DNA from: an uncultured Clostridia bacterium
Lineage (GTDB): Bacteria > Acidobacteriota > Aminicenantia > UBA2199
DNA length: 64,000 nucleotides
Assembly (NCBI GenBank): GCA_964502145.1
Contig: CAZCVI010000029.1
Location: 9,431 to 73,430, forward strand
Reading direction: 5' to 3'
Below are positions 239 to 64,000 of this stretch, in pieces. Both the position numbers and the translations under genes were made by a program. The notes below the pieces were generated by a model that did no database searches, was not told the origin of the DNA, and worked only from the letters and a program-made list of their open reading frames with translations. How positions within the stretch are numbered: position 1 is the first letter of the stretch; each line of letters opens with the position of its first letter.

Positions 239-3200
239 ATGCGTCAAAAGCACAGGGGATGGGTGGCTGTTTTGGCTGTAATGATGCTCATCTGCTTTAG
301 CGGGTCTTTTTTGGCTTTTGGGCAAGAGAGCCAGCAGGAGCAATCCGAGGTGAAAGAGGAGTTATCACCAGATGAAGTGTGGGCGCAAAAAGGTGAAGAA
401 TTCTTTAAGAAGGAAGATTACCCGGCGGCCATTGAGTGCTATCATAAGGCAATTAAACTAAACCCCAAAGAGATTTCGTGGCCACTGAAGTTGTCTGATG
501 TATTGTATTCCTTTGAAAAATTTCCAGAAGCGTTACAAATATTGGATGAGGCCTGGAAGGTTTTTCCAGAGGCAGAGGATCGTAAGAAAATGAATATTGC
601 ACAGGCGGATGTCCATTTATGGTGGGGAGTACATCTGGGTAAGAACTATAAATATGCTGAGGAAATCACCCATTATGAGTTGGCCTTACCTCTATACTGT
701 GCAGTAGGAGACCGTGGGAGTGAAGCTGCCACCCTAAACAACATCGGGTTGGTGTATTATTATCTTGGTGAGAAAGAAAAAGCGTTGAGCTATTATGAGC
801 AAGTCTTACTTATATGCCGCGTTATAAGAGATCGCGGAGGTGAAGCTACCACCATGTATAACATCGGTTCGGTGTACAATGATCTTGGAGAGAAAAAAAA
901 AGCTTTGAATTATTTTGAGCAAGCTTTGCCCATCAGTCGCGCTATAGGAGACCTGAGTGGTGAAGCCAACACACTTAACAACATTGGTTCCGTGTATGAC
1001 GATTGGGGAGAGAAAAAAGAGGCATTGAACTATTATGAACAAGTATTACTCATCTATCGCTCATTAGAAAACCGCAGTGGTATAGCGATCACCCTAAACC
1101 ACATGGGGCGCGTGTATGATGATCTGGGTGAAAAAAAGGAATCGCTACACTATTATGAGCAATCATTATCACTCCGACGAGCCATAGGTGATCGCAAGGG
1201 TGAAGCGACCACCCTAAACAACATCGGTTCTGTGTATGATGACCTTGGTGATAAAGATAAAGCACTGAGTTATTATGAACAAGCCTTACCACTTCGTCGA
1301 GCTGTAAGCGATCGCGAGGGTGAAGCGACTACATTGAACAATATGGGCATATTGTACTCTTCCCTTGGAAATAAAGAAAGCGCGTTGCTCTATTATCAAC
1401 AAGCTTTACCCCTGTATCGCGCTGTAGGAGACCGCGGCGGTGAAGCCACCACCCTGAATAACATCGGTTTTATATATGATTCTCTGGGTGAGAAAGAAAA
1501 AGCACTGAGCAATTATCAGCAAGCATTACCCATTTTTGTTGCTGTAGGAGATCGCAAAGGAGAAGCCATCACCCTGAACAACATCGGTCCCGTTTATTAT
1601 GATTTGGGTGAGAAAGAGAAAGCGTTGATCTATTTTCAGCAAGCCTTACCCCTTCATCGTGCTGTGGGCGACCGCGAGAGTGAAGCCACCACCCTGAATA
1701 ACATCGGTATGGTGTATTATTCCCTGGGTGAGCAAGAGAAAGCCCTGAGCTATTATGAGCAGGCATTACCAATCTCTGTTGCTGTTGACGACCGTGCCGG
1801 TGAAGCTGTTATGCTCAGTAACCTTATGGTTCATTGGAATGACAGGAAATATGTTTCCCTGGCCATTTTTTATGGGAAACAATCCATCAATACCCGTCAA
1901 CAACTACGGGAAAATATTGTTAACTTGGACAAAGAGATTAAAAATAACTACCTTAAAACAGCAAGAGATACCTACCGCTTTCTAATTAATCTCCTCCTTA
2001 AACAACGCAGATTTGATGAAGCCCTTCAAGTTCTGGATATGCTCAAAGCCGAAGAGTACTACCAATTCATTCAGAAAGACAGTACCAACACAATTCTAAA
2101 TCTCCAATACCAACCTCCCGCTTTCACTCCTTTTGAAGCTCAATGGCAGCAACAATTTAATACCCATTTAGAAAACATATCCAAAATAAGCAACCCTCTC
2201 CATGAACTATTAATCACTAAAAAAGAAGCCGACCAAAATCGCCTCACCTCGCTGCAAAACCAACTCAACGAAGCCAATAAAGCCTATGATCAATTCCTCC
2301 TTCAATTAAAAGTTTCTTCTGCTGAATACGATCAAAAAGTAGAAAAAGGAGAAAGTATTGGTCTGAACCTTGCCTCACAACCACACTCCGTTCAATCCAA
2401 TCTCCAATTTTTGGATAAAAATGAAGAAGGCAAAAGTGTCACCCTGCACTATTATATTTTTGAAAATACCATTTATATCCTTCTCACCACTCCCAACTCC
2501 ACCATTCAAACCCTGCGGACAAGTGATTTCAATCCAGCGATACTATCCCCTTTGATTGAAAACTACAAAACCACCATTAAAGATATGAGCACACGCAGTG
2601 CTGAATCAAACAGTCCCACCCCATCCGAACTCGCCTTTTTAACTTCCACTGAACTCTATAACCTCCTTTTCAAACCCATTGAAAAAGATATCCAGGACTA
2701 CGGCGCAACGAATCTTATGGTCTATCTTGATGGCGAATTACGGTATATCCCCTTCTCTGCCCTTTATGATGGTCAACACTATCTCGTACAACGATACCGT
2801 ATTTCTCTTCTTACCACATCCAGTATGCTCCGCCTTCACGAAGAACCCACGCAGAATTTAAAAATACTGGGTTTGGTAGCCAGTAAAAGCAGTGTTGGCT
2901 TCCCTGCTCTTCCCGATGCCAAGGATGAAATCACTTCTATTGTGAAGGAGAACAGCAGCGATCACGCTGGGTTCATTGAGGGTATAGTCTTGATGGACGA
3001 AGCCTTCACCAGAGCCTCTATGTTCCAGCAGTTAAAAACCGCAGACTTTCCTCTCGTACACATTGCCAGTCATTTTAAATTCAGTGCTGAAAATGAAGCA
3101 GAGAATTACCTTCTGCTGGGGGATAAGCAAAAGTTGACCTTAAAAGATATCTACGTGGAAGATCATTTATTTCAAAAGGTAGATATGCTCGTTTTGGCCG

Positions 3201-3520
3201 CATGTCAAACCGCCATGGGCACCAGTAGCGGTGTGGAAATTGATAGTTTCGGAGAACTGGCGCAACGAAGCGGTGCCAAATGCGTGGTGGCTTCCTTGTG
3301 GAACGTGGCAGATAATAGTACCAAAGATTTGATGGTGGCCTTTTACCGGAACCTGAAAGAAAACCGTTTCACCAGTAAAATTGAAGCACTCCGTCAAGCA
3401 CAACTGGAACTGGCAGGCTTGGATGATCTTATGCTTCCCTCTCCCATTAAACGGAATAAATCAGTGTATGCCTCCCCCTACTACTGGGGACCTTTTATTA
3501 TGATGGGCAATTGGCGGTAA
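239..3520 (+). CDS. Exported TPR-repeat / CHAT-domain protease (signal peptide, ~10 TPR_12-like repeats, helical linker, C-terminal CHAT)
   Basis: ORF 185..3520; the ATG at 239 follows GGGAGG. The N-terminus MRQKHRGWVAVLAVMMLICFSGSFLAFG resembles a Sec signal. 40-aa repeats read GDRxGEATTLNNIGxVYxxLGEKxKALxYYEQALPL. CHAT His and Cys motifs are LVHIASHFKF and MLVLAACQTA. Confidence 0.85.
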   Translation: MRQKHRGWVAVLAVMMLICFSGSFLAFGQESQQEQSEVKEELSPDEVWAQKGEEFFKKEDYPAAIECYHKAIKLNPKEISWPLKLSDVLYSFEKFPEALQILDEAWKVFPEAEDRKKMNIAQADVHLWWGVHLGKNYKYAEEITHYELALPLYCAVGDRGSEAATLNNIGLVYYYLGEKEKALSYYEQVLLICRVIRDRGGEATTMYNIGSVYNDLGEKKKALNYFEQALPISRAIGDLSGEANTLNNIGSVYDDWGEKKEALNYYEQVLLIYRSLENRSGIAITLNHMGRVYDDLGEKKESLHYYEQSLSLRRAIGDRKGEATTLNNIGSVYDDLGDKDKALSYYEQALPLRRAVSDREGEATTLNNMGILYSSLGNKESALLYYQQALPLYRAVGDRGGEATTLNNIGFIYDSLGEKEKALSNYQQALPIFVAVGDRKGEAITLNNIGPVYYDLGEKEKALIYFQQALPLHRAVGDRESEATTLNNIGMVYYSLGEQEKALSYYEQALPISVAVDDRAGEAVMLSNLMVHWNDRKYVSLAIFYGKQSINTRQQLRENIVNLDKEIKNNYLKTARDTYRFLINLLLKQRRFDEALQVLDMLKAEEYYQFIQKDSTNTILNLQYQPPAFTPFEAQWQQQFNTHLENISKISNPLHELLITKKEADQNRLTSLQNQLNEANKAYDQFLLQLKVSSAEYDQKVEKGESIGLNLASQPHSVQSNLQFLDKNEEGKSVTLHYYIFENTIYILLTTPNSTIQTLRTSDFNPAILSPLIENYKTTIKDMSTRSAESNSPTPSELAFLTSTELYNLLFKPIEKDIQDYGATNLMVYLDGELRYIPFSALYDGQHYLVQRYRISLLTTSSMLRLHEEPTQNLKILGLVASKSSVGFPALPDAKDEITSIVKENSSDHAGFIEGIVLMDEAFTRASMFQQLKTADFPLVHIASHFKFSAENEAENYLLLGDKQKLTLKDIYVEDHLFQKVDMLVLAACQTAMGTSSGVEIDSFGELAQRSGAKCVVASLWNVADNSTKDLMVAFYRNLKENRFTSKIEALRQAQLELAGLDDLMLPSPIKRNKSVYASPYYWGPFIMMGNWR
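670..1830 (+). repeat. About 10 tandem 120-bp coding repeats (TPR units); boundaries approximate
   Basis: The block ggtgaagcNaccaccctRaaYaacatcggt recurs every 120 nt. It generates spurious antisense ORFs (806..1042, 1089..1292, 1569..1772). Confidence 0.8.
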
Positions 3521-3746
3521 GACAGGAGTATACAATTTTCTATGTAAATCTGTGGTGATCTTTTTCTCAGTATAATCTTGTAGCGATTTATATAGAGAAG
3601 GACCGAGATCATTACCACACACCGTACCACCCACTTTTTTTCTGGTCAGGATAGAGATCAAAAAATCTTTGATATCTGTTTTGATTGGTCTTTGTTTATT
3701 ACCAATACTATGGTATCATTAATTATTATTGTGAAAGGTATATTCT

Positions 3747-5123
3747 ATGAATACAGAATCTTGCGTTGATTTTTGTTGGAATGATTTATTGAGCTATATG
3801 GCTAAAAAGAGAGTTGTCCCTGTTATTGGAGAAGGTCTTTATTGGGTGCGAAAAAAATCAAACAGACAGGCCGGAGATTTCCTACTCTACCCATACCTTG
3901 CAAAATTATTTATTAAGGAAATGGGACTTGATAAGCAAATTTCTAATGAGATTGAAGAAACTTTTTCTCTTGCTGTATTTAGATCCCAAGAGCAAAATCC
4001 AGGAAAAGATATAGGTAATTCTGTGGATGATTTTCTTTCTGAACAATTAAACCACCTGACTCCCATTCCCAACGGACCACTATGGAAATTAGCCCGGATG
4101 AAAAACCTTGGATTGTTTATCAACACCACCCATGATAATTATCTCGAACGTATTTTGAAAAGAGTCCGAAATCATCCCGTTGAAACCATCCATTATTCAA
4201 TTAGAAAAAAATGGACGAATGAGATTGAACGCACTCTTTTTAAAAAACTGGAAGCAGGGCAATGTTCGATTATCTTTAATATTTACGGAAATGCAACCCG
4301 AAGCATTGAACCGGCCTACACAGAAAAAGATATTCTTGAGACGATTGTTTCTTTTCAAGAGGATATTTACAATGACCCAAATAATGTTTTTTTTCAAACT
4401 CTTCAAAGCTCGCATCTTTTATTTTTGGGGTGTAGGTATGATGATTGGTTGTTTCGCTTTTTTATCAGAACCATGTCCAACAAGGAATTTTCCATGCAGA
4501 AGGGGGCATTCAACAGACAGTTTATTGGAGATGACTTTAATACTTTTAGATGTGGTGACTTGTGGCGTTTTTTAAAGGCTCATTCCAGTGAAGTATTTTA
4601 TTCCGAGCGAAATGTGGCATTGGTAGATACGTTATTTGAAAAAAATTTTCCTGATCATGTTATTCGGAGGAAAGAATTCCCCAGACAAATTTTTTTAAGT
4701 TTCCATGGACAAGATCGTGAAACTGTAATCTGCTTGGCTAAACACCTACGAGAAGATGGCATCCATGTCTGGCTGGATCAATGGGAATTATCCTGTGGTG
4801 AGAATGTAGATAGAACCATAGTTGAAGCTATCGCTACCCGGCCTATATTTATCCCTATTGTATCCCACGCTACCCACGAGCTTCTATCAGGAAACGACAA
4901 TACATTAAAATATCATATTAAAGAATGGGAATGGGCTTATAGCAATCATATAAAAGGAGAAAAGCCTATTCATATCTTACCAGTAATCATCGATGATACC
5001 AAATGGATGTATGATTCATTTAAGCAATTGGTTCATTTAAAAATTCCCGGTGGTCAACGGACTGGGGATTATGAAAGACTACGATTAGGTCTGCTTGAAA
5101 TTATAGAACAGTTAGAAGGATAA
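3747..5123 (+). CDS. SIR2-like (SIR2_2/DSR-type) domain fused to a C-terminal TIR domain; no signal peptide
   Basis: The ordered motifs VPVIGEGL, INTTHDNYLE, IFNIYGN and LLFLGCRYDDW fit the SIR2_2 pattern. The C-terminus IFLSFHGQDRE...IHVWLDQWEL..GENV...IFIPIVS fits the bacterial TIR pattern. Confidence 0.75.
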   Translation: MNTESCVDFCWNDLLSYMAKKRVVPVIGEGLYWVRKKSNRQAGDFLLYPYLAKLFIKEMGLDKQISNEIEETFSLAVFRSQEQNPGKDIGNSVDDFLSEQLNHLTPIPNGPLWKLARMKNLGLFINTTHDNYLERILKRVRNHPVETIHYSIRKKWTNEIERTLFKKLEAGQCSIIFNIYGNATRSIEPAYTEKDILETIVSFQEDIYNDPNNVFFQTLQSSHLLFLGCRYDDWLFRFFIRTMSNKEFSMQKGAFNRQFIGDDFNTFRCGDLWRFLKAHSSEVFYSERNVALVDTLFEKNFPDHVIRRKEFPRQIFLSFHGQDRETVICLAKHLREDGIHVWLDQWELSCGENVDRTIVEAIATRPIFIPIVSHATHELLSGNDNTLKYHIKEWEWAYSNHIKGEKPIHILPVIIDDTKWMYDSFKQLVHLKIPGGQRTGDYERLRLGLLEIIEQLEG

Positions 5124-5127
5124 GATC

Positions 5128-8100
5128 ATGAAAATGGCCTCAACCCACTCAAATCCCTTTAAAGGTCTTAATTATTACGAGGAAGAGGATAGCAATATTT
5201 TCTTTGGACGAGAAAACGAATCCGAAGCATTGACAGAACTGGTGAAATTGAATCGGCTGACACTGGTTTTTGGGAAGTCAGGTATTGGCAAAACATCACT
5301 GCTCAATGCAGGACTTTTTCCATTGTTGCGAAAAATAAATTTTTTACCCATCCGCATCCAGTTTAATCATCTGGTTGACAGGATGTCCAGCGATGGAACG
5401 TCTCTTTTGAACCAAATCAAACAAGCGATTACCCAAGAACTCAATAAGCACGACATCTTACTTATGAAAAAGGGTGAAGATGTGACTGCTGATGCCATAA
5501 GTAATGAAGAATCATTGTGGGAGTACTTCCGCCGGGTTGATTTTAAAGCTTCTAAGCCAAATGAGAATGATCTATCCAATGGTGTGACTCCTGTTCTGAT
5601 ACTGGATCAGTTCGAGGAGTTTTTTAGACTAAAAAAACATGATCCCCAGCGGCAATTTCTTATGGATGAATTATTCTGGCTGGTAGAGGACCAAGTTCCT
5701 CCCCACATTGAAGAGAGAATTTTAAGCAAGCGAGAGAGTTATCCCTATCTCCGTGAACATCCTGTTTTTCGTGTGCTGCTTAGCTTCAGGGAAGAGTATC
5801 TGCCGCATTTGAATGAATTTAAAAAGCGGATTCCTTCACTACACCGCGTATTGTTCCAAATTACGCACTTGAATGGTCTCCAAGCCCGTGAAGTTATGGA
5901 GAAAACCGGGGCATTTTCAGATGAATCCATAAAAAAAGATATTCTGAAACAGTTTTATCCCGATGATATTGACCAAGAAAACATCTGTGAAGAAAAGCTG
6001 GAAATTGAAACCGCTTTATTCAGCTTGTTATGCGATCAGGTTTACGAAAAGGGTGTTGGTGTTCTGACCAATCAAGCCAGAGATGAAATACTAACCGAAT
6101 TTTACCAACAGACTTTATGCAAACTACCGAACTGTGAGCAATTGACTGAATGGATAGAGAACCATTTATTAACAGAAGACGGGGCTCGAACCCCCCGTGT
6201 TTTGGAACGAGATTTTTCTATGCGGCAAGGTATTGAAGCAGCCATCAATGAAAAACTCCTGCGTAAGATGTACATTGGAGAGAAAGAGCATGTCGAGATC
6301 ATTCATGATGTCTTGGCCCCGATAATTCAGCAACAGAAAGTTCAGCGGTTAGAAGAGCAGAAACGGAGATCTGAAGAGCAGAAGCGGTTAGATACTGAAA
6401 AAGATTTGGCAATGAAAAGAGAGTTACGGCAAAAACGACGATGGATGACAATTATTTCTATATGTGCCATTATTGCTGTTGCTTTTGCAATATTCGCATT
6501 TCTCCAGATGAAAGTGGCTAAAAAAAATGAGCACGAAGCCATAGCTCAAAGAATTAGGGCGGATAAAGAGAAAAAAATTGCTGATGAACAAGCCCAAAAG
6601 TTGAATGAGCAGAAAAACGTTGCACAAGAAAATGAAAAAATAGCCAAAGAAAATGAACAAAAAGCCACTGCTGAAAAAGTAAAATTGAAGCGTCTTTCAA
6701 ATGAATACGATGCTCTGAACAAGGAGGGACGGAAGTCTAATGCTCTTGGAGAAACAGAAAAAGCATTAAAAGCTTTTGGAGACGCCCTGTCAAAAGCGAG
6801 AGCCGCTGGCAACACCACATATGTAGCAGACACCCTGAACAACATCGGTATGGTGTATTCTTCCCTGGGTGAGAAAGAAAAAGCCCAGAGCTATTATGAG
6901 CAAGCCTTGTCCCTCCGACGCGCCATAGGAGACCGCGGTGGAGAAGCCACCACCCTGATCAACATCGGTAGCGTGTATTCTTCCTTGGGTGAGCAAAAGA
7001 AAGCCCTGAGCCATTATGAGCAAGCCTTACCTATAGTTCGTGCCGTAGGAGACCTTAGCGGTCAAGCCACCACCCTGAACAACATCGGTTCCTTGTATGA
7101 TTCCCTGGGTGAGAAAAAGAAAGCCCTGAGTAATTATGAGCACGCCTTACCAACCTTTGTCTCTATTGGTGACAGGCGTGGCGAAGCCACCACTCTGAAC
7201 AACATCGGTAGCGTGTATGATTCCCTGAATGAGAAAGAGAAAGCTCTGAACTTTTATGAGCAAGCCTTACCTACTTTTATAGCTGTGGGTGACCATACAG
7301 GTGAAGCCTCAGTTCTTAAAAACCTAATGAGCTTATTTAATAGTTTGAATAATAAACCAGTAGCAATTTTTTTTGGAAAACAGACTGTCAACTGTTATCA
7401 GCATCTTAGAAAAAATATCACCACCCTCTCCCAAAAGACCCAACACACCTATCTCAAATCCGTTCAAGATACCTACCACTATCTGATAGATATCTTGTTC
7501 CAGCAAAACCGCATAGGTGAAGCACTGGTGGTGACGGATATGCTCAAAGATGAAAACTATTTCAGTTTTATTCGTAGAGATCACCCCATCAGTAAAAGTA
7601 CTCCTCATTTCCAAAAAATTGACTATACTCAATTCGAACAAGAATGGTTGAAAAAATATAATGAAACTCTGAAAAATATCACCTTTGTTAGCAAGCAATA
7701 CCAGGAACTGGTTCTGGTGGCATCTAAAAATAAAAATGACCAAAATTTTCTGCATCAACTGGAGGTTCAACTAAGTGAATCCAGACGATCCTTTGAGAAG
7801 TATCTCCACCAATTAAAAAACACGGACATGTATTACCCAAAAATAAACTTTAATGAAACTGAAATCCGTTCCGTCTCTGAAAAAATCCAAGCTATTCAAT
7901 CCACTCTTCGCTATTTAGATGAAGCAGAAGGGGGCAAAAGTATTACTCTGCATTATTTTTTATCTGTTGATAAAATTAATATTATTCTTACCACACCTTT
8001 TACGCAAGTTCTTATCCCAATAACCTGCGATCAAAAGATAATGAACAACCTGATAATGACCTATCACCAATCAATTGGTAATGGTGGATATGTCCGCGGG

Positions 8101-9021
8101 GTAAAAATCTTAACGCAAAGCATGGAAGAGATTGCAGGACCAACCTCAAAAAAAATCTATGATTTCATCTTTATGCCTGTTGAGAGGGATCTCAAAAATT
8201 ATGGTGCAACAAATATTATGGTTTATCTGGATGGTGTATTACGGGATATTCCTTTCGCAACCCTTTGGGATGGTAAGAGCTTTCTGGTGCAACGTTTCCG
8301 ACTTTCTAATATTACTACATCCAGCTTACTAAATATTAAGGATGAACCCTCACCAAATTTTAAAATCCTGGGTATGGGTACACCCGAGGGTGGTCTGATA
8401 TTTGCCCCATCACCTGGTATTGCTGATGAAATCCAGGCTATCGTCAATGATAAAAGTAGTGGATACCATGGTATGATTGAGGGTAAAGTCTTGGTAAATA
8501 ATACTTTTACAAAAAATAACATGATAGCGCAACTCAAGTCTGGACAGTATCCCCTTGTGCATATTGCTAGTCATTTTCAATTCAACCCAAGTAGTGAAAA
8601 TGAAAGCTTTATGTTACTGGGAGATGGCAACAAAATGACTTTATCTGAAATTCGTAGGGAGAATAATTTATTTTATAATGTAGATATGTTGGTATTATCC
8701 TCATGCCAGACAGCAACAGGTAGCGGCAATGGCGAGGAAATTGACGGTTTCGCTGAATTAGCTCTTATAAGCGGTGCCAAATGCGTGGTGGGTTCCTTGT
8801 GGAACGTAGGAGATAACAGCACCAAAGAATTGATGGTGGCGTTTTACCAAAACCTTACGGAAAAACGTTTCACCAGCAAAATTGAAGCACTCCGTCAAGC
8901 ACAACTGGAAGTGTCCGGCTTGGATGATCTCCTGCCTGCCACTCCCATTAAACATAATAAAACAAAATATGCCTCTCCTTATTATTGGGGACCTTTTATT
9001 ATGATGGGCAATTGGCGGTAA
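5128..9021 (+). CDS. nSTAND-type P-loop NTPase - single TM helix - coiled coil - TPR repeats - CHAT protease
   Basis: N-terminus: NPFKGLNYYEEEDSNIFFGRE...LVFGKSGIGKTSLLNAGLFPLL (Walker A) and VLILDQFEEFF (Walker B). TM helix: MTIISICAIIAVAFAIFAFLQM, after KRELRQKRRW. A Lys/Glu coiled coil follows, then about 5 TPR units. CHAT motifs are LVHIASHFQF and MLVLSSCQTA. The start lies 4 nt after the upstream stop. Confidence 0.85.
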   Translation: MKMASTHSNPFKGLNYYEEEDSNIFFGRENESEALTELVKLNRLTLVFGKSGIGKTSLLNAGLFPLLRKINFLPIRIQFNHLVDRMSSDGTSLLNQIKQAITQELNKHDILLMKKGEDVTADAISNEESLWEYFRRVDFKASKPNENDLSNGVTPVLILDQFEEFFRLKKHDPQRQFLMDELFWLVEDQVPPHIEERILSKRESYPYLREHPVFRVLLSFREEYLPHLNEFKKRIPSLHRVLFQITHLNGLQAREVMEKTGAFSDESIKKDILKQFYPDDIDQENICEEKLEIETALFSLLCDQVYEKGVGVLTNQARDEILTEFYQQTLCKLPNCEQLTEWIENHLLTEDGARTPRVLERDFSMRQGIEAAINEKLLRKMYIGEKEHVEIIHDVLAPIIQQQKVQRLEEQKRRSEEQKRLDTEKDLAMKRELRQKRRWMTIISICAIIAVAFAIFAFLQMKVAKKNEHEAIAQRIRADKEKKIADEQAQKLNEQKNVAQENEKIAKENEQKATAEKVKLKRLSNEYDALNKEGRKSNALGETEKALKAFGDALSKARAAGNTTYVADTLNNIGMVYSSLGEKEKAQSYYEQALSLRRAIGDRGGEATTLINIGSVYSSLGEQKKALSHYEQALPIVRAVGDLSGQATTLNNIGSLYDSLGEKKKALSNYEHALPTFVSIGDRRGEATTLNNIGSVYDSLNEKEKALNFYEQALPTFIAVGDHTGEASVLKNLMSLFNSLNNKPVAIFFGKQTVNCYQHLRKNITTLSQKTQHTYLKSVQDTYHYLIDILFQQNRIGEALVVTDMLKDENYFSFIRRDHPISKSTPHFQKIDYTQFEQEWLKKYNETLKNITFVSKQYQELVLVASKNKNDQNFLHQLEVQLSESRRSFEKYLHQLKNTDMYYPKINFNETEIRSVSEKIQAIQSTLRYLDEAEGGKSITLHYFLSVDKINIILTTPFTQVLIPITCDQKIMNNLIMTYHQSIGNGGYVRGVKILTQSMEEIAGPTSKKIYDFIFMPVERDLKNYGATNIMVYLDGVLRDIPFATLWDGKSFLVQRFRLSNITTSSLLNIKDEPSPNFKILGMGTPEGGLIFAPSPGIADEIQAIVNDKSSGYHGMIEGKVLVNNTFTKNNMIAQLKSGQYPLVHIASHFQFNPSSENESFMLLGDGNKMTLSEIRRENNLFYNVDMLVLSSCQTATGSGNGEEIDGFAELALISGAKCVVGSLWNVGDNSTKELMVAFYQNLTEKRFTSKIEALRQAQLEVSGLDDLLPATPIKHNKTKYASPYYWGPFIMMGNWR
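6820..7330 (+). repeat. About 5 tandem 120-bp TPR-coding repeats, the same family as 670-1830; boundaries approximate
   Basis: Recurrent gaagccaccaccctgaacaacatcggt blocks. They explain the antisense ORF 6790..7023. Confidence 0.75.
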
Positions 9022-9120
9022 GACACACCTCCTCTCCTTCATTTGACCCACCAAAGGCAAAACATTTTAAACTTGCAATGCCATACGTCTTTGTTTTATA
9101 ATAAACATTCAGAGGAACAC

Positions 9121-11487
9121 ATGATTAATAAAAGCGTTTCAATAAACAATTTAATCTTTAACCACAAGAGAGTATGGATTTTAATCCTGGTGCCCTTCTT
9201 CTTTCTAAACATGAATGATATGATATTCCCCCAGACCCGACGCGCTCTGCTGGTGGGAATTTCCCAATACTCCCACTCTGAACTGACCACTTTTCCCGAA
9301 TGCAGAAAGGAAAACATAGACAACCTTCCCGGTACCGTGGCAGATATAACCAATATGAAGCAATTGCTGATGAGCCGCTTTCACTTTTTGGAGAGTGAAA
9401 TTACTGTATTGTCAGAACGTGATGCCACCCGCCAAAACATCCTACAGAATTTTAAGGAACAACTCATTGACCCTGCAAAGGAAGGCGATATCTGTCTCTT
9501 TTATTTTTCCGGTCACGGTTCCCAGATTACCAATTCCTTATCCAATCAGAGTAATAAGCAGGACGAAACACTCGTCCCGTATGACTGGTACACGGGCAAT
9601 CGTGACCTTCGCGACAAAGAGTTAAAGCGACTGTTTAACCTGGTACTCGATAAAAAAGCATATCTCACTGTAATTGTCGATGCGTGTCACAGTGGTTCCA
9701 TTGCCCGCGGCCCTATTGAAAAGGGAACCTATCGCCAAGCTCCCCCCAATCTTTGCGACGTGGCAGAACCACCAGACAATGCCCCAGACCCCGCTGCCCG
9801 CGGCGCTGTGATTCTTGCCGCTGCCCAAGAGTCGGAACTGGCCCGCGAAATTGCAGTGGATAATGTGAACGACAAGGGCAAACATTATGAAGGGTTGTTT
9901 ACCTGGGCATTGCGTTCTACCTTGTTGACCTGTTCCCCGGATGAAGCCATTCATAACGTCATGCTGCGCGTCGAAGCCTTGATGCACAGCGAAGGATTAA
10001 AACAGATAAATAAGTATAGCTTCCCAGACCTCCAAACGAAACCCGAAATACGAAACTGGCCGCTCTTTTGCCTCAAACCAGGTGAAGCGATGGGTATGGC
10101 TTTTGCGGTTAAAGCCATCCATGGAAATACTATTATTATTAATGGCGGTTTGGCTGCGGGAATTCTGGAAAACTGCGAACTGCAAAAAGCAGGGAACCCT
10201 GCTGCCCCTGTTCACGTTCGCGTATCGCAAAGCGTACAGAACCTGAATGAATGCCAAACCACTGTGTTTCAAGGTGAAGTAAAAAATATAAAAGTCGGTG
10301 ATCTGTTTACAGTTGAAAAATGGGTCATGCCCCGTGAGTCGCGGATGAGGGTCTGGTTTCCCACCGCTCCTTTTTCCGCTGCGGAATTAATGCAATTGGC
10401 CAAATCAATCACCACTCCTGAATTATTACAACAGGTGGAGTGGCTAAACGACCCCACCAGCAAATCCCCGGATTATACGATGTATTGGAACAGTTCATCA
10501 TGGCAATTATTAACCCCCAAGGGCAAGATCATCTCGCTAGGAAAAAAACCGAAAACGGATGATGTGCTGCAACAAATCAAGACCATTACTCCGCAACCGC
10601 AAGGCAAACCGCTGTTTTATTTGCAACTCCCTTTGCCTGTTTCTTTGAGTAACCAGATAAAGGAGTGTGTGCGTGCGTACCAAGACACGGTGAATATCCT
10701 TGATTCCTCCAAAGGCACTATTTATTTCCTCACCGGGCGTTGGCACCAGGAAAAACTGGAATATGCCTGGCGTGTCCCGGATGTGTTCAAAGATGAGGAA
10801 AAGGGGTTTGGCTTGCCGTTAAGAACCCAGTGGCTGGATGCCTCTTCACCGGGTGATATGGATGATATAAAAAACACGATTGTTTTTCCGCTGCGTGATC
10901 TCTTATTAAAACTGGTAAAAATCAGGGCGTGGTTGCAATTGCAAACGCCCCCACCCGCTCAGAATAGGCGTGTTTTTCCTTATGAATTGGGATTACGAAG
11001 AGTGGGAACGCAAGAGTTTAAAACCTCTGGTCCACTGTTATGTAATGACATCTACGGATTTGTGTTGCGTGCCACTGATGATATACATTCCGGGAATAAA
11101 GAAAAAAGGTATGCGTATGCCTTTATTATTGATAGTGATGGCGAAAGCAAGCTGTTGTTTCCCACTCAAGAACAGGGCAATTCAGAGAATGAATTTCCAG
11201 CTACCGATGAATGGCCGCAGGAAATTCAGATGGGTAAAAATGATTTATTTACCATAACCCCTCCTGTGGGAATGGATACCTATATTGTTTTGACCACGAC
11301 GGAAAAGATATCCAACCTCAGCGTATTTAATTTTGATGGCGTGCGATCACGTGGTGAAATCCAGTCTCCCCTGGAACGGTTGCTGGCTGATCTCAGTTCA
11401 GCCACTCGTGGAGAGGATTCCAGTTCGTCCCTTATTTCCAACTGGTCCATTAAACATATGCCTGTATTAAGTAAAAAAGAAGAATAG
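9121..11487 (+). CDS. Caspase-family (peptidase C14) protein with an N-terminal hydrophobic anchor/signal and a DUF4384-like C-terminal domain
   Basis: ORF 9043..11487; I prefer the ATG at 9121 (MINKS...). Hydrophobic segment VWILILVPFFFLNM. Motifs RRALLVGISQYS, FYFSGHGSQ (His) and VIVDACHSGS (Cys). C-terminus RYAYAFIIDSDGESKLLFP...DTYIVLTT resembles DUF4384. Confidence 0.8.
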   Translation: MINKSVSINNLIFNHKRVWILILVPFFFLNMNDMIFPQTRRALLVGISQYSHSELTTFPECRKENIDNLPGTVADITNMKQLLMSRFHFLESEITVLSERDATRQNILQNFKEQLIDPAKEGDICLFYFSGHGSQITNSLSNQSNKQDETLVPYDWYTGNRDLRDKELKRLFNLVLDKKAYLTVIVDACHSGSIARGPIEKGTYRQAPPNLCDVAEPPDNAPDPAARGAVILAAAQESELAREIAVDNVNDKGKHYEGLFTWALRSTLLTCSPDEAIHNVMLRVEALMHSEGLKQINKYSFPDLQTKPEIRNWPLFCLKPGEAMGMAFAVKAIHGNTIIINGGLAAGILENCELQKAGNPAAPVHVRVSQSVQNLNECQTTVFQGEVKNIKVGDLFTVEKWVMPRESRMRVWFPTAPFSAAELMQLAKSITTPELLQQVEWLNDPTSKSPDYTMYWNSSSWQLLTPKGKIISLGKKPKTDDVLQQIKTITPQPQGKPLFYLQLPLPVSLSNQIKECVRAYQDTVNILDSSKGTIYFLTGRWHQEKLEYAWRVPDVFKDEEKGFGLPLRTQWLDASSPGDMDDIKNTIVFPLRDLLLKLVKIRAWLQLQTPPPAQNRRVFPYELGLRRVGTQEFKTSGPLLCNDIYGFVLRATDDIHSGNKEKRYAYAFIIDSDGESKLLFPTQEQGNSENEFPATDEWPQEIQMGKNDLFTITPPVGMDTYIVLTTTEKISNLSVFNFDGVRSRGEIQSPLERLLADLSSATRGEDSSSSLISNWSIKHMPVLSKKEE

Positions 11488-11497
11488 GAGAATAAAC

Positions 11498-12679
11498 ATG
11501 AGAAGAGCAAGACATGGTTTCAGTAAAGTAGTAGTGGTATTTTTTCTAATGTTGTTTTTCACCATTGTTGGTTCTGCGCAAACAGAAGAGAACACCAAAG
11601 CCAAAGGCACCATTATTTTTAATTTCATTCAACCCGCCGCTACGGTTCCATCCCAAGGAGCACCCAATCCCGATGCCCCCCAAACCACTTCTGCCCAACC
11701 GGCCCAAACGGTTACAGATACCACCGGCCCCACCTGGTTCTTTATTCCCGGCAAAAGTTATAAAGAGATATTAACGGCATTCCAGTATAACCCCGATAGT
11801 TTTGCAAATGAACGTTCAAACATAATAAACTTTTTGAATGCCTTAAAGAAAAAATATCCCAAAGGAACAGATCGGCGCTGGTTTGGTTCCCGGGGTGATG
11901 TATTGGATGCCGTGGTATTCTATAATCCTTCAACGCCCACATCAGCAGCAGTCGCAACAACAGAGGGAAAACCGACTTGTTGCTGCTGTGGAAAACAGGT
12001 CGCGCAGGTAAATCCATCGGCACAGGAGAATCAAAAAACCATGGCGGCGAAGTTTACCTTTAAAGAGGATAAACGCAAAACCAGAATCGCAGGCGATTTG
12101 AATACCTTGATTAAATTGATTTTTAAGGTAAGTGCCAAAGGGGGAGAGGATATAACCATCGCTCAAGAACAACATACATTAAAAGAGCGTTCTGCTTTAC
12201 TGACCGTTTCCGTGAGTGTGGGCGAAAAACAAACCACTGCGGTCGTCTTAACCACTGGTCCACAAGAACATTGGTTCCTTTCTGCTGACTTGTTGGTGAA
12301 CAAGATTTCCGAGGTTAAACTGGTGGAAAAAGATAAAGTCAACACCATCGAACCCAAAGAAACACCCAAAAGCTTTTTTCTAGGAGTGAACTTTCTGTTG
12401 GGTGACATTCTTAAAGAGAAGCAGGTCTTTTGGAAGTATTTTTTTGTAAAAGGAATGCTAAAGATTTCCAAGACACCTTGGGATGGGTATGGCGTGGGGT
12501 TAGGGTTTCGTTTTCCCCAATGGCGTATCTTGGGCGTGGACATCTCTGCACTGTCCATTTTTGGCGCGATGGTGTGGACCAAGGAGGAGAACGCCGACAA
12601 GAGTGTCAAGTTCACCAAGCGGCAAATGCTAATGGGTATCAGTTACAATTTGGACAGGGCTTTGGATTGGGTTAAATAG
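11498..12679 (+). CDS. Secreted hypothetical protein: signal peptide, Pro/Thr/Ala-rich linker, CCCC motif, beta-rich C-terminal half
   Basis: AGGAG RBS. N-terminus VVVVFFLMLFFTIVGSAQ. KPTCCCCGKQ motif. Starts 10 nt after the caspase gene stop. No family recognised. Confidence 0.6.
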   Translation: MRRARHGFSKVVVVFFLMLFFTIVGSAQTEENTKAKGTIIFNFIQPAATVPSQGAPNPDAPQTTSAQPAQTVTDTTGPTWFFIPGKSYKEILTAFQYNPDSFANERSNIINFLNALKKKYPKGTDRRWFGSRGDVLDAVVFYNPSTPTSAAVATTEGKPTCCCCGKQVAQVNPSAQENQKTMAAKFTFKEDKRKTRIAGDLNTLIKLIFKVSAKGGEDITIAQEQHTLKERSALLTVSVSVGEKQTTAVVLTTGPQEHWFLSADLLVNKISEVKLVEKDKVNTIEPKETPKSFFLGVNFLLGDILKEKQVFWKYFFVKGMLKISKTPWDGYGVGLGFRFPQWRILGVDISALSIFGAMVWTKEENADKSVKFTKRQMLMGISYNLDRALDWVK

Positions 12680-12965: not shown

Positions 12966-13991
12966 ATGACGATAGATCAAAAAAGTAAAATAAAAAAGTT
13001 AATACTGGTATTATTCCTAGTGCTGTTATTTTTTCCCTTTTGTAGCGACCCGCTTCCCGTGGATCCCCCTCCGCCGCCGCCTCCCCCTCCACCGCCGCCG
13101 CCCGTATTGACCGAGCATCGGGTGCCTGTTTATTTCACCAACAATGGGTTCAGCCGCTGTGATCTTTTCACCGCGTTTCTTGTACTGGAGCCAAAAGTAA
13201 CCACCGGTGAAGAATCGGATATCAATAACTATAATGTATCTATAAAGGAAGTGGTCAATCTTACCCGTACACCGGTGGTGGATGAATTTGCCGTGGATTT
13301 TATCGCCCCGGATAAACTTCTTTTTGTAATAGCCGACGAAGGTTTGAACGATAGCAATATTGGGAACACTGAAATTGCGTTTATGAATATGTCAGATCGA
13401 ATTGTGCATCCCATCACCCCCATAAAAGGGGAATATAGCGGTGATAACTGGGACCCCCACTGGGTGGATAGTAACACCATTGTCTGGAGTCATCTGGGGC
13501 GTCTGGTGCAGTATGATTTACTGACCGGAACGATAACCGATCCCCTCATTCCCGAACTTGAAGGCGTGGTGTATGATCCGGTGTACCTTTTTCCGGCCAA
13601 AGAAAAGATTCTTTATAATGCGCGGAGATCGGGGAAAAAGAACAGTTATTCCTATTCCTTTATAACTCATGAAGAAAAGCAATGCCTCCCCCCGGCCTAT
13701 TTCAATGTATATAAAGATGATAATCCCTCGTGGTATAACGGTGAAAAAATTGTTGGTCATTACTTTGAAAATGAGCGGGGGCGTTTATATACCAGGGACG
13801 GTGACAACTTTTTAGTCATCACCGATGCCACCCATGATTTCCGTTATGTTGTGGGCACCCAAATCATCGGGCAGTGGTTTTTTGTATTTTCTGAATGGTC
13901 TGACATGGAAAATATCCGCCTATGGATGGCCAATGAAAATGGCACGTGGCTTCAAGACCTTAATCAAGGTGGTGACGAGTTGTCTTTCTAA
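12966..13991 (+). CDS. Lipoprotein with a poly-proline linker and a beta-propeller-like (TolB/PD40-like) domain; paralog of 30357..31667
   Basis: Signal plus Cys (LLFFPFCS), P14 tract, and motifs GDNWDPHWVDSNTIVWSH, GRLYTRDGDNFLVITDATHDFRYV and LWMANENGTWLQDLNQGGDE shared with the paralog. Confidence 0.7.
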   Translation: MTIDQKSKIKKLILVLFLVLLFFPFCSDPLPVDPPPPPPPPPPPPPVLTEHRVPVYFTNNGFSRCDLFTAFLVLEPKVTTGEESDINNYNVSIKEVVNLTRTPVVDEFAVDFIAPDKLLFVIADEGLNDSNIGNTEIAFMNMSDRIVHPITPIKGEYSGDNWDPHWVDSNTIVWSHLGRLVQYDLLTGTITDPLIPELEGVVYDPVYLFPAKEKILYNARRSGKKNSYSYSFITHEEKQCLPPAYFNVYKDDNPSWYNGEKIVGHYFENERGRLYTRDGDNFLVITDATHDFRYVVGTQIIGQWFFVFSEWSDMENIRLWMANENGTWLQDLNQGGDELSF

Positions 13992-37689: not shown

Positions 37690-39261
37690 TTACACCCACA
37701 CCATGAAGATTTGTTTTTCCCCTATAATGAGTGTCTCATTCGCGCCTATTTTATTGCTTTGGCGGCGGGAATCGTAAATAATGAGAAAGCCAAGGTTTTG
37801 GTTCTGGCGGTCCAGATAATCCGTTAGTTGCTTCAAGCCTTTCCGGTGCGATTCCTCGCCATACCACTTTTTTAATTCAATAATGTATTTTTGGCTCCCG
37901 TAAGTCACCGCGATGTCCAACCTTTTTTCCTCGGAAATTTCTACTTCCTTGAAATCATAGCCTTTGCCATTAATAATGGGTCTTAAGAAGGTCAGGAAGA
38001 GCAATCTACCGTTTCGTTCCAGAAACACCAGGTCTTTTTCAGAATACTGCTCCTTCAGAAAAGTTTGGAAACGTAGCAGCACTTCCCTCATATTCAGTGC
38101 GCCGCCATTTTCCAAGAAATGGTCCCTGAAATTATAATTCCCCATGTTTGAGGAGGTTTTCACCTTGGAGGCCATATAATTGTAAATACGCTGCTCATAT
38201 AATCGGTTGTGAATCCGTACCCGGCCATTTTCATCGCGAAAAACGCCATGGGTCACCCCTTTTTCGATAAGCGGATTATCTAAATTGTACCCGATGTCTT
38301 CCCCTTCCAACACTATGCGGTAAACCATGTCGTAGAGGGACGGATTGTTTTCGAGGTTTTTGATTAAGCTTTGAAAATTGGTATTATCCTCTTTTAACAA
38401 GTTATTGGCTGCCGTATCAATATCCACTAATTCCCAGCGCTCCAAAGGGTGGATGTCTTCATCTATAATCTTGCACAACCGGGAAACGAGGAAGGGATAA
38501 CCGGAAGTTAAATAGTGCAATTTCGCAGCGGCTTCCTTAATAGTGAGCTGGATGTTGTTTTGGGTCAGAAAATCATGGAGTAAACTTTCGATTTCACTGC
38601 TGCTGAGGCTCAGGTCGCCGGGAAAATTAATCGCAATGTTCCAAGGGCTGTTGTATTGTTGTTCAGCATCCGCTCTGACTTTAAGTTTTAAATTTTTCAC
38701 ATCATGGACGCCTGCCAGTATCACTGAAAAAAAGGTGGAATCCTGGCCTTTATTGCGTAACAGGTATTTGGCCCGCAACATCCCCAAAAAAACAAGGAAC
38801 AACTGGTTGTTGCTGGATTTATCCACTTCATCAATCGCAACGACAATCTTTTGACCAGTGGCGGTTATTTCAGTAATCACTTTGGAAAGGTCTTTGAGGG
38901 AGTGGGTTGTTTTAATTTGCTGTGAAAGGTAATGGGATAATGGGTGCTCTGTATGTTTAAACTTTTCCAGTAGCATTTCAATAAAAGTGGGCGCAAATAG
39001 TTCTTCACTGGCAAAAATGTTATCAGAAATTCCTTCGAAGCTGATATCAAAGACCAGATAGCCCATTTTTTCCAATTCAATTCCCAGCAGGTACAACAAG
39101 GTTGTTTTGCCGTATTGTCGTGGGCGGTTGATGGTGAAGTACTTGCCTTTTTCCACCAGTTTAATCAAACTGGCGATCTTGGTAGACCGATCGGCCATAT
39201 AATGCAAATGAGGTACACACAAGCCAGCATCGTTAAATTCTTTTCTGCTTTCGTTTATCAT
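37690..39261 (-). CDS. Predicted AAA-ATPase with a C-terminal PD-(D/E)XK nuclease-like domain (the AAA-ATPase_like + PDDEXK_9 architecture)
   Basis: FNDAGLCVPHLHYM, YFTINRPRQYGKTTLL (P-loop), VVAIDEVDK (Walker B). C-terminus RLDIAVTYGSQKYIIELKKW. Confidence 0.7.
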   Translation of the reverse strand: MINESRKEFNDAGLCVPHLHYMADRSTKIASLIKLVEKGKYFTINRPRQYGKTTLLYLLGIELEKMGYLVFDISFEGISDNIFASEELFAPTFIEMLLEKFKHTEHPLSHYLSQQIKTTHSLKDLSKVITEITATGQKIVVAIDEVDKSSNNQLFLVFLGMLRAKYLLRNKGQDSTFFSVILAGVHDVKNLKLKVRADAEQQYNSPWNIAINFPGDLSLSSSEIESLLHDFLTQNNIQLTIKEAAAKLHYLTSGYPFLVSRLCKIIDEDIHPLERWELVDIDTAANNLLKEDNTNFQSLIKNLENNPSLYDMVYRIVLEGEDIGYNLDNPLIEKGVTHGVFRDENGRVRIHNRLYEQRIYNYMASKVKTSSNMGNYNFRDHFLENGGALNMREVLLRFQTFLKEQYSEKDLVFLERNGRLLFLTFLRPIINGKGYDFKEVEISEEKRLDIAVTYGSQKYIIELKKWYGEESHRKGLKQLTDYLDRQNQNLGFLIIYDSRRQSNKIGANETLIIGEKQIFMVWV

Positions 39262-62407: not shown

Positions 62408-64000
62408 ATGATTACGCGGGTAAAGCTTGACTATTTTAAGCGGTTTCAAGAAGAAACATTTATTCTGGACAACACCATCATTCTGGCGGGTCCGAATAAC
62501 AGTGGTAAAACCACTCTATTGCAAGCGATTTCAGTTTGGAACTTAGTCTTACAAAAATGGCTTTCCGCCCATTCTGGATCTGCCAATGGCAAACACAGGG
62601 CGGGCGTGCCTATTTCCAGGCAAGATTTCACTTCCATTCCCATGCGCGAAATGAACTTGCTCTGGTCTGATCGTGATACAGGGTACAGCAAAGATGAAAA
62701 ACCTGGCTTCAAACCGGGCTATCCGAAACTGGCCGCTATTTCCATTTACGGAGAAACACCGGGTCACGGCGAGTGGCACTTAAAAGCGACACTACGATAT
62801 GCCAATAAAGAATTAATCTACGTCAAACTAACCGATGAACAATCGAATCCCATTGACGAAATCCCCCCGGCTGCGAAAGAGTTAAAAATCGTTCATGTTC
62901 CCCCTTTTTCGGGAATTGGCGCAGAGGAAACAGGATTGCAATTGGGATATCAGAACCGTTTGATAGGCCAAGGAAAACCGGGCGATATATTGCGCAATCT
63001 ACTCTTGGAAGTATTTAAAAAAAAAAGTCCCACCACCACCGATTGGAACTCGTTAACAACTGATATAAAAGAGTTGTTCGGTTATGAATTACTCGAACCA
63101 ATATATTCAGAGGAGACAGATCCCTTTATTCGTATTGAATATCGTGAAGTTTCGGGAAATTTTCGTAAACCCTTTGATATTGCGTCGGCGGGAAGTGGAT
63201 TTCATCAAGTGTTGACATTATTCGGGTTCCTTTATGCGCGGGAAGCATCGGTATTGTTGTTGGATGAACCGGATGCGCATCAGCATGTGATTTTGCAGCG
63301 ACAGGTATATGATCGGTTACGTGGTACAGCGGCAAGAAAGGGGTGTCAATTAATCGTTTCCACCCATTCCGAGATTATTCTTGAAGATACAGCCCCGGAA
63401 CACATCCTTTCCTTTTACGGTCGTCCCCATCGTCTTGCCGTAAACACCCATCGTGACCAAGTACGTGAAGCACTGAAACGTCTCTCTTCGTCTGATCTAT
63501 TGGCAGCAGAAAATAAGCGGAATATCCTTTATGTTGAAGATGAATCAGATTTCAAAATTCTCAATCAATTAGCCATAAGAGCGGAACATAAGATGAAGGA
63601 TTTTTTTGCAAAACCATTTTACTATGCCATACACGGACGGGATGTTCGAGAAGCAAAAAACCATCTGTTTGCCCTCAAATCCATCCATCCGAATATTCGC
63701 GGAGTGCTGCTTTTGGATGGTGATAATAAAAATCTCTCGGAACACGAAATCTCTGCGGACGATTTGCAGATTCTCAGGTGGCAGAGATATGAAATAGAAA
63801 ATTATTTTTTTTATCCGGTAGCGTTATACCGTTTTATTGAAAGTGCCGTACCGCATTTATCTTCCGGTGTCAGCAGAAATGTAGCAGAAGAATACCTGCA
63901 TCAGAATCTTTCTCCTGAAGCGATAATGAACCCTTTGGGTGATGATGACTATTTGGTAAGAATTCCTTTCAGTAAAAAATTATTACCCGTGATGCTTGAA
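62408..64000 (+). CDS. ABC/AAA-type ATPase with a C-terminal TOPRIM-like region (OLD-family / PARIS-fusion-like), 3'-truncated by the window end
   Basis: Not in the ORF track because no stop falls within the window. I translated 531 codons with no stop. Motifs: ILAGPNNSGKTTLLQAI (Walker A), GSGFHQVL, VLLLDEPDAHQH (Walker B/D-loop), VSTHSEIIL (H-loop), then ILYVEDESDFKIL and GVLLLDGDNKN (Glu ... DxD, TOPRIM-like). Confidence 0.7.
   Translation, partial: MITRVKLDYFKRFQEETFILDNTIILAGPNNSGKTTLLQAISVWNLVLQKWLSAHSGSANGKHRAGVPISRQDFTSIPMREMNLLWSDRDTGYSKDEKPGFKPGYPKLAAISIYGETPGHGEWHLKATLRYANKELIYVKLTDEQSNPIDEIPPAAKELKIVHVPPFSGIGAEETGLQLGYQNRLIGQGKPGDILRNLLLEVFKKKSPTTTDWNSLTTDIKELFGYELLEPIYSEETDPFIRIEYREVSGNFRKPFDIASAGSGFHQVLTLFGFLYAREASVLLLDEPDAHQHVILQRQVYDRLRGTAARKGCQLIVSTHSEIILEDTAPEHILSFYGRPHRLAVNTHRDQVREALKRLSSSDLLAAENKRNILYVEDESDFKILNQLAIRAEHKMKDFFAKPFYYAIHGRDVREAKNHLFALKSIHPNIRGVLLLDGDNKNLSEHEISADDLQILRWQRYEIENYFFYPVALYRFIESAVPHLSSGVSRNVAEEYLHQNLSPEAIMNPLGDDDYLVRIPFSKKLLPVMLE

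Follow-up and report, generated by a model that had tools for sequence, protein, structure and literature searches.

The gene considered here lies at positions 5128..9021 of the forward strand of a stretch of 64,000 nucleotides of contig CAZCVI010000029.1, a stretch referred to below, at its full length, as the window. It is an intact open reading frame (ORF), open over 1297 codons, whose product of 1297 amino acids (aa) will be called the STAND protein. An NTPase head of nSTAND1 type, a hydrophobic helix predicted to cross the inner membrane, a charged stalk, a TPR array and a caspase-like CHAT domain follow one another along it, and directly upstream stands the gene of a SIR2-TIR protein. 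The head, the helix and the upstream gene represent a design that recurs across phyla, and the TPR-CHAT part apparently replaces, in this lineage, the outer module that the design usually carries. The features of the two genes, in positions of the window, are these:

3747..5123, forward strand: SIR2_2 and TIR_2 protein of 458 aa (Pfam), likely NADase effector and conserved partner
5128..9021, forward strand: whole STAND ORF, with nSTAND1 NOD, transmembrane (TM) helix, stalk, TPR and CHAT
5155..6300, forward strand: NOD, residues 10-391, composed of P-loop nucleotide-binding domain, helical domain and winged helix (Pfam nSTAND1 and AAA_16), predicted cytoplasmic
5200-5214, 5272-5295 and 5593-5619, forward strand: FFGRE, Walker A and Walker B motifs of the NOD, respectively
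6313..6441, forward strand: basic juxtamembrane helix, residues 396-438, with 7 lysines or arginines (K/R) in its final 15 residues, predicted to lie on the cytoplasmic side
6442..6510, forward strand: single TM helix, W439-M461, signal-anchor-like, from hydrophobicity and conservation in homologs
6511..6717, forward strand: helical stalk rich in K, E, A, Q and N, residues 462-530, from composition, predicted periplasmic
6718..7362, forward strand: TPR array, residues 531-745 (four TPR_12 and other TPR models of Pfam)
7363..8142, forward strand: helical linker, residues 746-1005, conserved in TPR-CHAT proteins and aligning with the paralog and homologs described below
8143..9012, forward strand: CHAT caspase-like domain, residues 1006-1295, with His1149 at 8572-8574 and Cys1193 at 8704-8706

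The NTPase head, the hydrophobic helix and their predicted topology

In Pfam, the head matches nSTAND1 (PF20703) over residues 10-271 (E 6e-27), with a score of 95.6 bits against a gathering cut-off of 27.1, and the match covers model positions 1-210 of 379, whereas relatives cover 1 to ~375; four TPR_12 matches follow at ~535-745, and CHAT (PF12770) at 1006-1295 (E 9e-58, 196 bits). The definition of STAND NTPases used here is said to be that of Leipe, Koonin and Aravind in 2004, and the motifs that it names are all present: GR[ED] before the P-loop (FFGRE, residues 25-29), a Walker A of the form GxxxxGK[ST] (GKSGIGKT, 49-56), and a Walker B of the form hhhhD with acidic residues (VLILDQFEE, 156-164). 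In an alignment of 60 relatives of the head, F25, G27, R28, G49, G52, G54, K55, D160, E163 and E164 are invariant. The same definition places the repeats in the compartment of the NOD, and in this the protein departs from it, as its TPRs lie beyond the predicted membrane span, in what would be another compartment.

An AlphaFold2 model of residues 1-560, built on that alignment (mean predicted local distance difference test score, pLDDT, 84.6; predicted template modelling score, pTM, 0.73), shows P-loop, helical and winged-helix parts, the last with a beta-hairpin at 378-391, and its pLDDT exceeds 90 over residues 10-391. From there one unbroken helix, 396-502, runs from the basic stretch through the hydrophobic span and into the stalk; in means over blocks, pLDDT is at least 93 up to residue 460, 82 at 461-470, and below 50 from about 485. 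Judged by the secondary-structure output of the model, the hydrophobic span appears to stand free of the globular head. Against the PDB, Foldseek relates the modelled head to ORC/Cdc6, SSO1545, Avs4 (8dgf), NLRC4 (4kxf) and SAMD9 (E 1e-8 to 4e-5), so that by its predicted fold the head is a member of the ORC/STAND branch of the AAA+ ATPases.

An earlier note, made from the letters of the DNA, had described an nSTAND head, a basic stretch, one hydrophobic helix, a charged stalk, TPRs and CHAT, and this order is borne out by the ORF, the Pfam matches and the hydrophobicity. Its details require some adjustment: the helix is indeed there, at residues 439-461 and not ~446-468; the Lys/Glu stalk is there as well, with a length of ~70 aa and not ~100 aa; and the head followed by a helical domain of ~400 aa gives way, in the AlphaFold model, to a single NOD of ~390 aa and then one long helix.

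W439-M461 (WMTIISICAIIAVAFAIFAFLQM) is the sole strongly hydrophobic segment of the protein, with 23 uncharged residues, a Kyte-Doolittle 19-residue mean of 2.81 (the best window elsewhere reaches 1.26), and a simple sum on the Hessa scale of -3.6 kcal/mol. The earlier note had proposed a survey of homologs for this segment as a refuting test, and had described the helix for a single protein; the survey keeps the helix, with a result firmly on the side of the note, and makes it the norm of a clade. Residues 1-520, searched against 5.8 billion proteins, gave 395 matches at E <=1e-5, and among the best 120, nearly all of them nSTAND1 proteins with WD40 repeats or proteins of ~750 aa with an nSTAND1 match alone, a single hydrophobic segment (Kyte-Doolittle >=1.8) lies at ~385-460 in 116, at 31-56% identity. 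A scan of one genome per species returned at least 563 loci, spread over Acidobacteriota, Bacteroidota (Chitinophagaceae), Verrucomicrobiota, Beta- and Gammaproteobacteria, Myxococcota (Minicystis rosea), Desulfobacterota, Chlorobiales and others; in the best 80 of these, which hold 81 head-bearing ORFs and to which all counts of loci below refer, the helix stands right behind the head in 79 ORFs, the two exceptions being a split ORF and a fragment at a contig end. Within the helix, S444, I449, A454, A457, F458 and Q460 are moderately conserved. Since two nSTAND1 proteins without it were also found, P0380 (nSTAND1-TIR-NB-ARC-TPR) and P0073 (TIR-nSTAND1-FHA-nSTAND6-NACHT-pentapeptide), the helix marks one large cross-phylum nSTAND1 clade and not the entire family. 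In a metagenome-assembled genome (MAG) of Aminicenantes, a head ORF is split into 199 aa and 421 aa (locus L008, 5980-7847), possibly through a frameshift, a pseudogene or an assembly error.

The stalk belongs to the same inheritance. Similarity between the STAND protein and its WD40-type relatives runs past the helix to residue ~530-548, and for this reason the TPR-CHAT junction is placed after the stalk. In those relatives the segment behind the membrane opens with a conserved Q-KNRAD-QY motif, followed by repetitive K/E/Q/A units, and the length of the stalk goes from almost 0 (P0012, P0013) to ~150 aa (P0006, P0008, P0014). This variable length, together with a composition like that of TolA, would fit a periplasmic spacer. 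In close homologs of the head a stalk repeat unit of ~22 aa can be read (…EKKRADEQYK.A..QK.IA.QNEQKA…).

As the NTPase requires cytoplasmic NTP, and as a hairpin would need more than the 23 residues of the span, the C-terminal part should lie across the membrane. The charges point the same way. The 15 residues before the span hold 7 K/R and the 15 after it 4; in the protein homologs the means are 7.1 and 4.1 per 15 residues, with the N-terminal flank richer in 108 of 116, and in the ORFs of the genome set 6.0 and 3.7, with the same sense in 69 of 78. In other words, the positive-inside argument is weak for a single protein and strong across the family, and the extracytoplasmic position that the earlier note gave to the TPR-CHAT part by this rule gains the indirect support of the family bias, of the signal-like starts of free-standing CHAT relatives described below, and of the unbroken modelled helix that leads from the winged helix through the span into the stalk. 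The STAND protein is most likely, as predicted from its sequence, a single-pass type II protein of the inner membrane, N-in/C-out. The term periplasm seems apt, given that the window encodes an outer-membrane beta-barrel, an SLT transglycosylase and lipoproteins, from which the organism is taken as diderm.

An alternative would leave both halves in the cytoplasm, the helix being peripheral, re-entrant or of an oligomerisation type, and the protein an ordinary membrane-tethered intracellular STAND. The characterised STAND sensors are, as is well established, intracellular, and basic residues also stand just past the helix (KVAKK). However, 23 uncharged residues make a hairpin impossible, the hydrophobicity is at the level of a bona fide span, the charge asymmetry runs throughout the family, signal peptides are common among the relatives of the outer module, and a TolA-like charged stalk of 0 to ~150 aa suits a periplasmic spacer; this alternative is therefore regarded as very improbable. 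With the TPR-CHAT part most likely extracytoplasmic, any coupling of the two halves would have to pass through the membrane along a single chain.

The SIR2-TIR partner, the outer module and its exported relatives

The SIR2-TIR protein has no signal peptide and no TM helix or other hydrophobic segment, and its gene stops 4 nt short of the STAND start, with a GAAGGA 9 nt upstream of the ATG at 5128. The same arrangement is found in relatives: a SIR2-TIR gene lies directly upstream of the STAND homolog in 4 of the 4 closest contexts that could be read, and in the wider set a same-strand homolog stands just upstream in approximately 78 of the 80 loci, often with a 4-nt overlap. The orthologs of the closest contexts are 46-53% identical to the window copy, which matches the divergence of the heads, and in the TIR domain the counterpart of the WCxxEL glutamate of Cat1 is E393, which all 5 orthologs compared keep unchanged. 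The protein is likely, as judged by these similarities, a cytoplasmic NADase effector. Given the constancy of this upstream gene across loci, the functional unit to be recognised from phylum to phylum is, on genomic grounds, SIR2-TIR together with nSTAND1-TM-stalk and a variable outer module. In an Omnitrophota MAG (locus L001, 505-3780), the gene directly before an nSTAND1-TM-WD40 gene encodes a protein of 1091 aa in which SIR2-TIR is fused to a Roc-COR GTPase, a second switch on the effector.

The outer module changes from locus to locus. WD40 repeats occupy it in 25 of the 80 loci, and TPRs in Holophagae and Bryobacteraceae genomes (L029, L062); tails without annotation reach ~600 aa in Proteobacteria and ~290 aa in Chitinophagaceae, and a CHAT module appears in 0 of the 80. 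Such variability is the behaviour expected at a sensor position.

As for the CHAT half, residues 740-1297 gave 481 matches at E <=1e-10, and among the best 119, 82 free-standing relatives begin with Met and a hydrophobic signal-like stretch, many of the remaining ones being fragments that start inside the TPRs or lie on short contigs; a signal-like start is also found in 100 of the 143 top matches of a library of representatives at 50% identity. The STAND protein is without the N-terminal signal peptide of this exported TPR-CHAT clade and has in its place the 438-aa head and an internal signal-anchor-like helix. By analogy, an exported-type module behind a predicted span would act as a natural reporter fusion. 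H1149 and C1193 sit in columns that are 100% conserved in an alignment of 120 CHAT sequences, and with the dyad intact the CHAT domain of the STAND protein is apparently an active caspase-like protease, as predicted from sequence.

Two of the neighbouring genes bear on the origin of this half:

239..3520, forward strand: TPR-CHAT paralog of 1093 aa, with a signal-peptide-like start, member of a resident exported-protease cluster
9121..11487, forward strand: Peptidase_C14 (caspase) and DUF4384 protein with a hydrophobic N-terminus, preceded by a promoter-like site at 9073-9102

The first begins MRQKHRGWVAVLAVMMLICFSGSFLAFGQ, with a GGGAGG Shine-Dalgarno sequence 6 nt before its ATG, and is 49% identical to residues 530-1297 of the STAND protein over 811 columns, so that the earlier note was right to call it a signal-peptide-bearing paralog of the outer part. 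For the further idea of that note, that the paralog might be a periplasmic partner or substrate of the STAND protein, the argument is adjacency. A derivation of the TM helix from the signal peptide of this paralog, suggested by a BLASTP match (RQKRRW... and RQKHRGW...), was rejected, the TM helix and stalk being homologous to those of nSTAND1-WD40 proteins; the resemblance is most likely convergent, a basic n-region before a hydrophobic core in both sequences. The caspase-DUF4384 gene probably belongs to the resident exported-protease cluster and not to the STAND module. Comparable clusters occur elsewhere: locus L005 has three exported TPR-CHAT genes in tandem, and locus L088 two of them followed by an exported caspase, which mirrors the order TPR-CHAT, ..., TPR-CHAT, caspase-DUF4384 of the window. 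At L088 (1-19738), the tandem TPR-CHAT genes and the exported caspase/FG-GAP gene adjoin Tubulin_2, VWA and protein-kinase genes, a neighbourhood that resembles the tubulin-containing conflict systems of PMC7159879.

Other observations concern the surroundings of the cluster. (i) The final ~250 nt of the two CHAT genes (3250-3527 and 8751-9028) are 80-90% identical, including 4 nt beyond the stop, with 54-66% upstream, which looks like gene conversion between paralogs, to judge from the alignment. (ii) Promoter-like sites at 151-179 and 9073-9102 share their hexamers (TTGCAA, 17 or 18 nt, TATAAT) and precede, respectively, the TPR-CHAT paralog and the caspase-DUF4384 gene, a hint that the exported proteases share a regulation apart from that of the SIR2-TIR/STAND pair, in a promoter and terminator scan of the window that as a whole did no better than on shuffled sequence, for which reason no operon boundaries are drawn. 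(iii) At 11498-12679 and 12966-13991 follow two more exported proteins, a signal-peptide protein of 393 aa and a putative lipoprotein of 341 aa with 14 prolines after its Cys; neither has an informative family in Pfam, PADLOC or NCBIfam, nor does either resemble the gene that adjoins the TPR-CHAT array of L005. (iv) Other defence-like NTPase genes of the window lie at 37690-39261 on the reverse strand (AAA_35/AAA-ATPase_like) and at 62408-64000 on the forward strand (AAA_15/AAA_21, AbiEii-type).

The combination of nSTAND1, TM helix, TPR and CHAT was not found a second time in the searches that were run, which took in the best 80 loci and a full HMMER pass of residues 1-1200 over 1.84 billion representatives. 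In that pass the STAND protein itself scores 2688 bits, its own paralog 1186, and all others at most 952, and the only heads among the other matches listed are a 505-aa fragment and the TM-less P0380. Comparative evidence suggests that in this lineage a TPR-CHAT part, apparently taken from the resident cluster of exported CHAT and caspase genes, has displaced the outer module that is usual elsewhere (WD40, TPR or other). GC content is 0.366 in the SIR2-TIR gene (0.31 at third codon positions) and 0.35-0.41 in the head, TM helix and stalk (0.35 in TM helix plus stalk) across 3747-6717, with a window mean of 0.44; this low GC is consistent with a horizontal arrival of the SIR2-TIR/head cassette. 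The simplest history that we would infer is that a two-gene cassette entered an exported-protease cluster and that a TPR-CHAT gene already resident there became attached behind its stalk.

It could be argued that the product is no more than a recent chimera, neutral or defective, in which a mobile SIR2-TIR and nSTAND1-TM cassette recombined into an exported TPR-CHAT array and was then tolerated without integrated function. The architecture has no second example among the matches listed from 1.84 billion representatives, no CHAT tail occurs in the 80 related loci, the GC of the cassette lies below the window mean, the 3′ ends of both CHAT genes show signs of gene conversion, and the STAND protein departs from the consensus at 13 of 92 highly conserved CHAT columns. 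That last figure, the joint highest of 120 sequences, had raised decay or pseudogenisation of the CHAT domain as a candidate, which was set aside, as the nearest free-standing relatives deviate in 8-13 columns each and the deviations are thus a trait of their subclade. Nor does the rest of the gene have the appearance of a wreck: its 1297 codons are open, the NTPase motifs and the CHAT dyad are all intact, the join lies neatly between domains, behind the stalk, and the C-terminal half, at 49% identity to its neighbour, is not a fresh duplicate. A chimera without function is accordingly held to be unlikely.

The topology proposed in the earlier note stands, as a prediction with indirect support; the place of the helix as a family norm, the SIR2-TIR partner and the nature of TPR-CHAT as a lineage-specific module had escaped it.

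The direction of signalling and related systems

With a cytoplasmic NADase that remains constant and an outer module that is interchangeable, the reading favoured here is that of a receptor: a bitopic N-in/C-out STAND NTPase of the inner membrane, with a periplasmic TPR-CHAT part, paired with SIR2-TIR. Taken as a whole this is a reasonably probable account. The steps would be: (i) a cue of the envelope or periplasm is bound by the outer module, or modifies it; (ii) the stalk and TM helices respond with a change in packing or in oligomeric state, the continuous helix of stalk, span and basic stretch acting as the coupling; (iii) this change permits an NTP-dependent assembly of the cytoplasmic NODs; (iv) and finally, the assembled NODs nucleate and activate the SIR2-TIR NADase, which would lead to NAD+ depletion and to growth arrest or abortive infection. 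TIR NADases need self-association, as in SARM1, the plant TNLs and the Cat1 filaments. That the NTPase controls SIR2-TIR is judged probable; that the signal travels from the outside inwards is put forward more tentatively, close to an even question.

A series of points weighs against this account. The charge bias of the protein taken alone is modest (7 and 4 K/R), with 3 Lys within the first 7 residues past the helix. The fusion is confined to this genome, as far as the sequence searches reach. The STAND protein has no N-terminal effector-associated adaptor through which its NOD might engage SIR2-TIR; as regards the catalytic residues of SIR2, a sequence search of the PDB with the SIR2-TIR protein returned TIR matches and no SIR2 structure. 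The head has no match of informative score to the defence models of PADLOC or NCBIfam. A protease that faces outwards looks more like an effector than a sensor, and a simple outside-in scheme for the STAND gene is the weaker for it.

Since the outer CHAT keeps its dyad, H1149/C1193, an inside-out or a dual-output reading also enters the balance. In the former, the NOD would sense an intracellular cue, possibly the product or the state of SIR2-TIR, its NTP-driven oligomerisation would cluster the periplasmic CHAT domains, and these would be activated by proximity and damage the envelope by cutting proteins of the periplasm, the exported TPR-CHAT paralog and the caspase-DUF4384 protein being examples, in a manner likened to that of caspase-9 on the apoptosome. 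It would agree with the usual effector character of CHAT and the preservation of its His/Cys dyad, with the position of CHAT distal to the TPRs at the end of the stalk, with the three more exported proteins encoded alongside, two clan-CD proteases among them, and with the recurrence at L088 of tandem exported TPR-CHAT genes and an exported caspase. However, none of the 80 related loci has CHAT in the outer position, which is held in all of them by non-enzymatic repeats or by a domain without annotation, the one constant enzyme is the cytoplasmic SIR2-TIR, and an acquisition of CHAT that is lineage-specific cannot account for the conserved design. An inside-out protease switch is for these reasons considered unlikely. 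Improbable too, in our estimation, is an integrated decoy, in which the outer TPR-CHAT would be a captured copy of a resident protease that is the target of a periplasmic inhibitor or protease of an invader, an attack on this bait being relayed by stalk and TM helix to the NOD, which would then fire the SIR2-TIR NADase; if it were true, it would parallel the plant NLR receptors with integrated domains (NLR-ID), but across a membrane.

The receptor reading can be set beside several known systems. The nSTAND1 family (PF20703) owes its name to Kaur, Iyer, Burroughs and Aravind (eLife 2021, PMC8195603), who described it in predicted bDLD3/EAD10 conflict systems of multicellular bacteria. The STAND protein resembles it in its Pfam-level head, in its STAND motifs and fold, in its C-terminal repeats, and in the linkage to genes of TIR, SIR2 and caspase type; it differs in that the nSTAND1 domain of that work has adaptor or effector domains (bDLD3, EAD10) on its N-terminal side and repeats on its C-terminal side, whereas here the adaptor is missing and the repeats are predicted outside the cytoplasm. 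In the limited literature collection searched, the papers that mention nSTAND1 describe no TM helix after the NTPase and no fixed SIR2-TIR gene upstream. The bacterial NACHT (bNACHT) and Avs proteins share the logic of the STAND switch, and the NOD of Avs4 (8dgf) is a structural match to the head, but their NTPase is of another clade, and those characterised have effectors fused at the N-terminus and detect phage proteins inside the cytoplasm. Kibby et al. (bioRxiv 10.1101/2022.07.19.500537) sort bacterial NACHT proteins by their C-terminal regions, one group being those that “have transmembrane domains”. The anti-phage STAND models of PADLOC 2.0 (Avs1-5, bNACHT and others) gave only a generic TPR match, a weak BovA in the CHAT region and a weak mad8 in the P-loop region (E 6.5e-4).

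A likeness in concept exists with the receptor-like ParA-TM-sensor proteins and their TIR partners (bioRxiv 10.64898/2026.10.19.760177), which are predicted type-II single-pass proteins with a cytoplasmic NTPase, a variable outer sensor that may consist of TPRs, and TIR effectors; they differ in that their NTPase is a SIMIBI ParA and not an AAA+-type STAND, presumably with another mechanism of assembly. The concept of a membrane-spanning receptor therefore has a precedent, and the SIR2-TIR-linked nSTAND1-TM clade and the TPR-CHAT fusion are undescribed in the literature searched.

For the outer half, the free-standing exported TPR-CHAT proteins share TPRs, helical linker, CHAT and His/Cys dyad at 47-53% identity, but use a cleavable-looking signal peptide where the STAND protein has its nSTAND1 head and signal anchor. 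Csx29, of the type III-E CRISPR Craspase, likewise has a TPR-CHAT architecture with the His/Cys dyad; it is cytoplasmic and activated by the Cas7-11/crRNA complex. The Craspase context (gRAMP/Cas7-11) is absent, as none of the ORFs of the window scanned with Pfam belongs to a cas family. TolA offers an analogy for the stalk, with a membrane helix and then a long helical spacer rich in Lys, Ala and Glu that bears a C-terminal domain across the periplasm, but it has no cytoplasmic NTPase.

Meaning for the nSTAND1 clade

The NLR/STAND switches are the textbook intracellular sensors. The STAND gene gives an independent genetic argument for another topology, as the outer position has accepted a module that is otherwise mostly exported, and if the fusion is a true reporter of topology, it would imply that the entire SIR2-TIR-linked nSTAND1-TM clade, with its at least 563 loci, reads the periplasm. 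Such a clade, tied to a SIR2-TIR NADase, would read the periplasm and kill from the cytoplasm. Since the outer position can be swapped, and can even bear an enzyme, the direction of signalling becomes a question that can be tested, and the system, with its two genes, is small and could be moved into laboratory E. coli.

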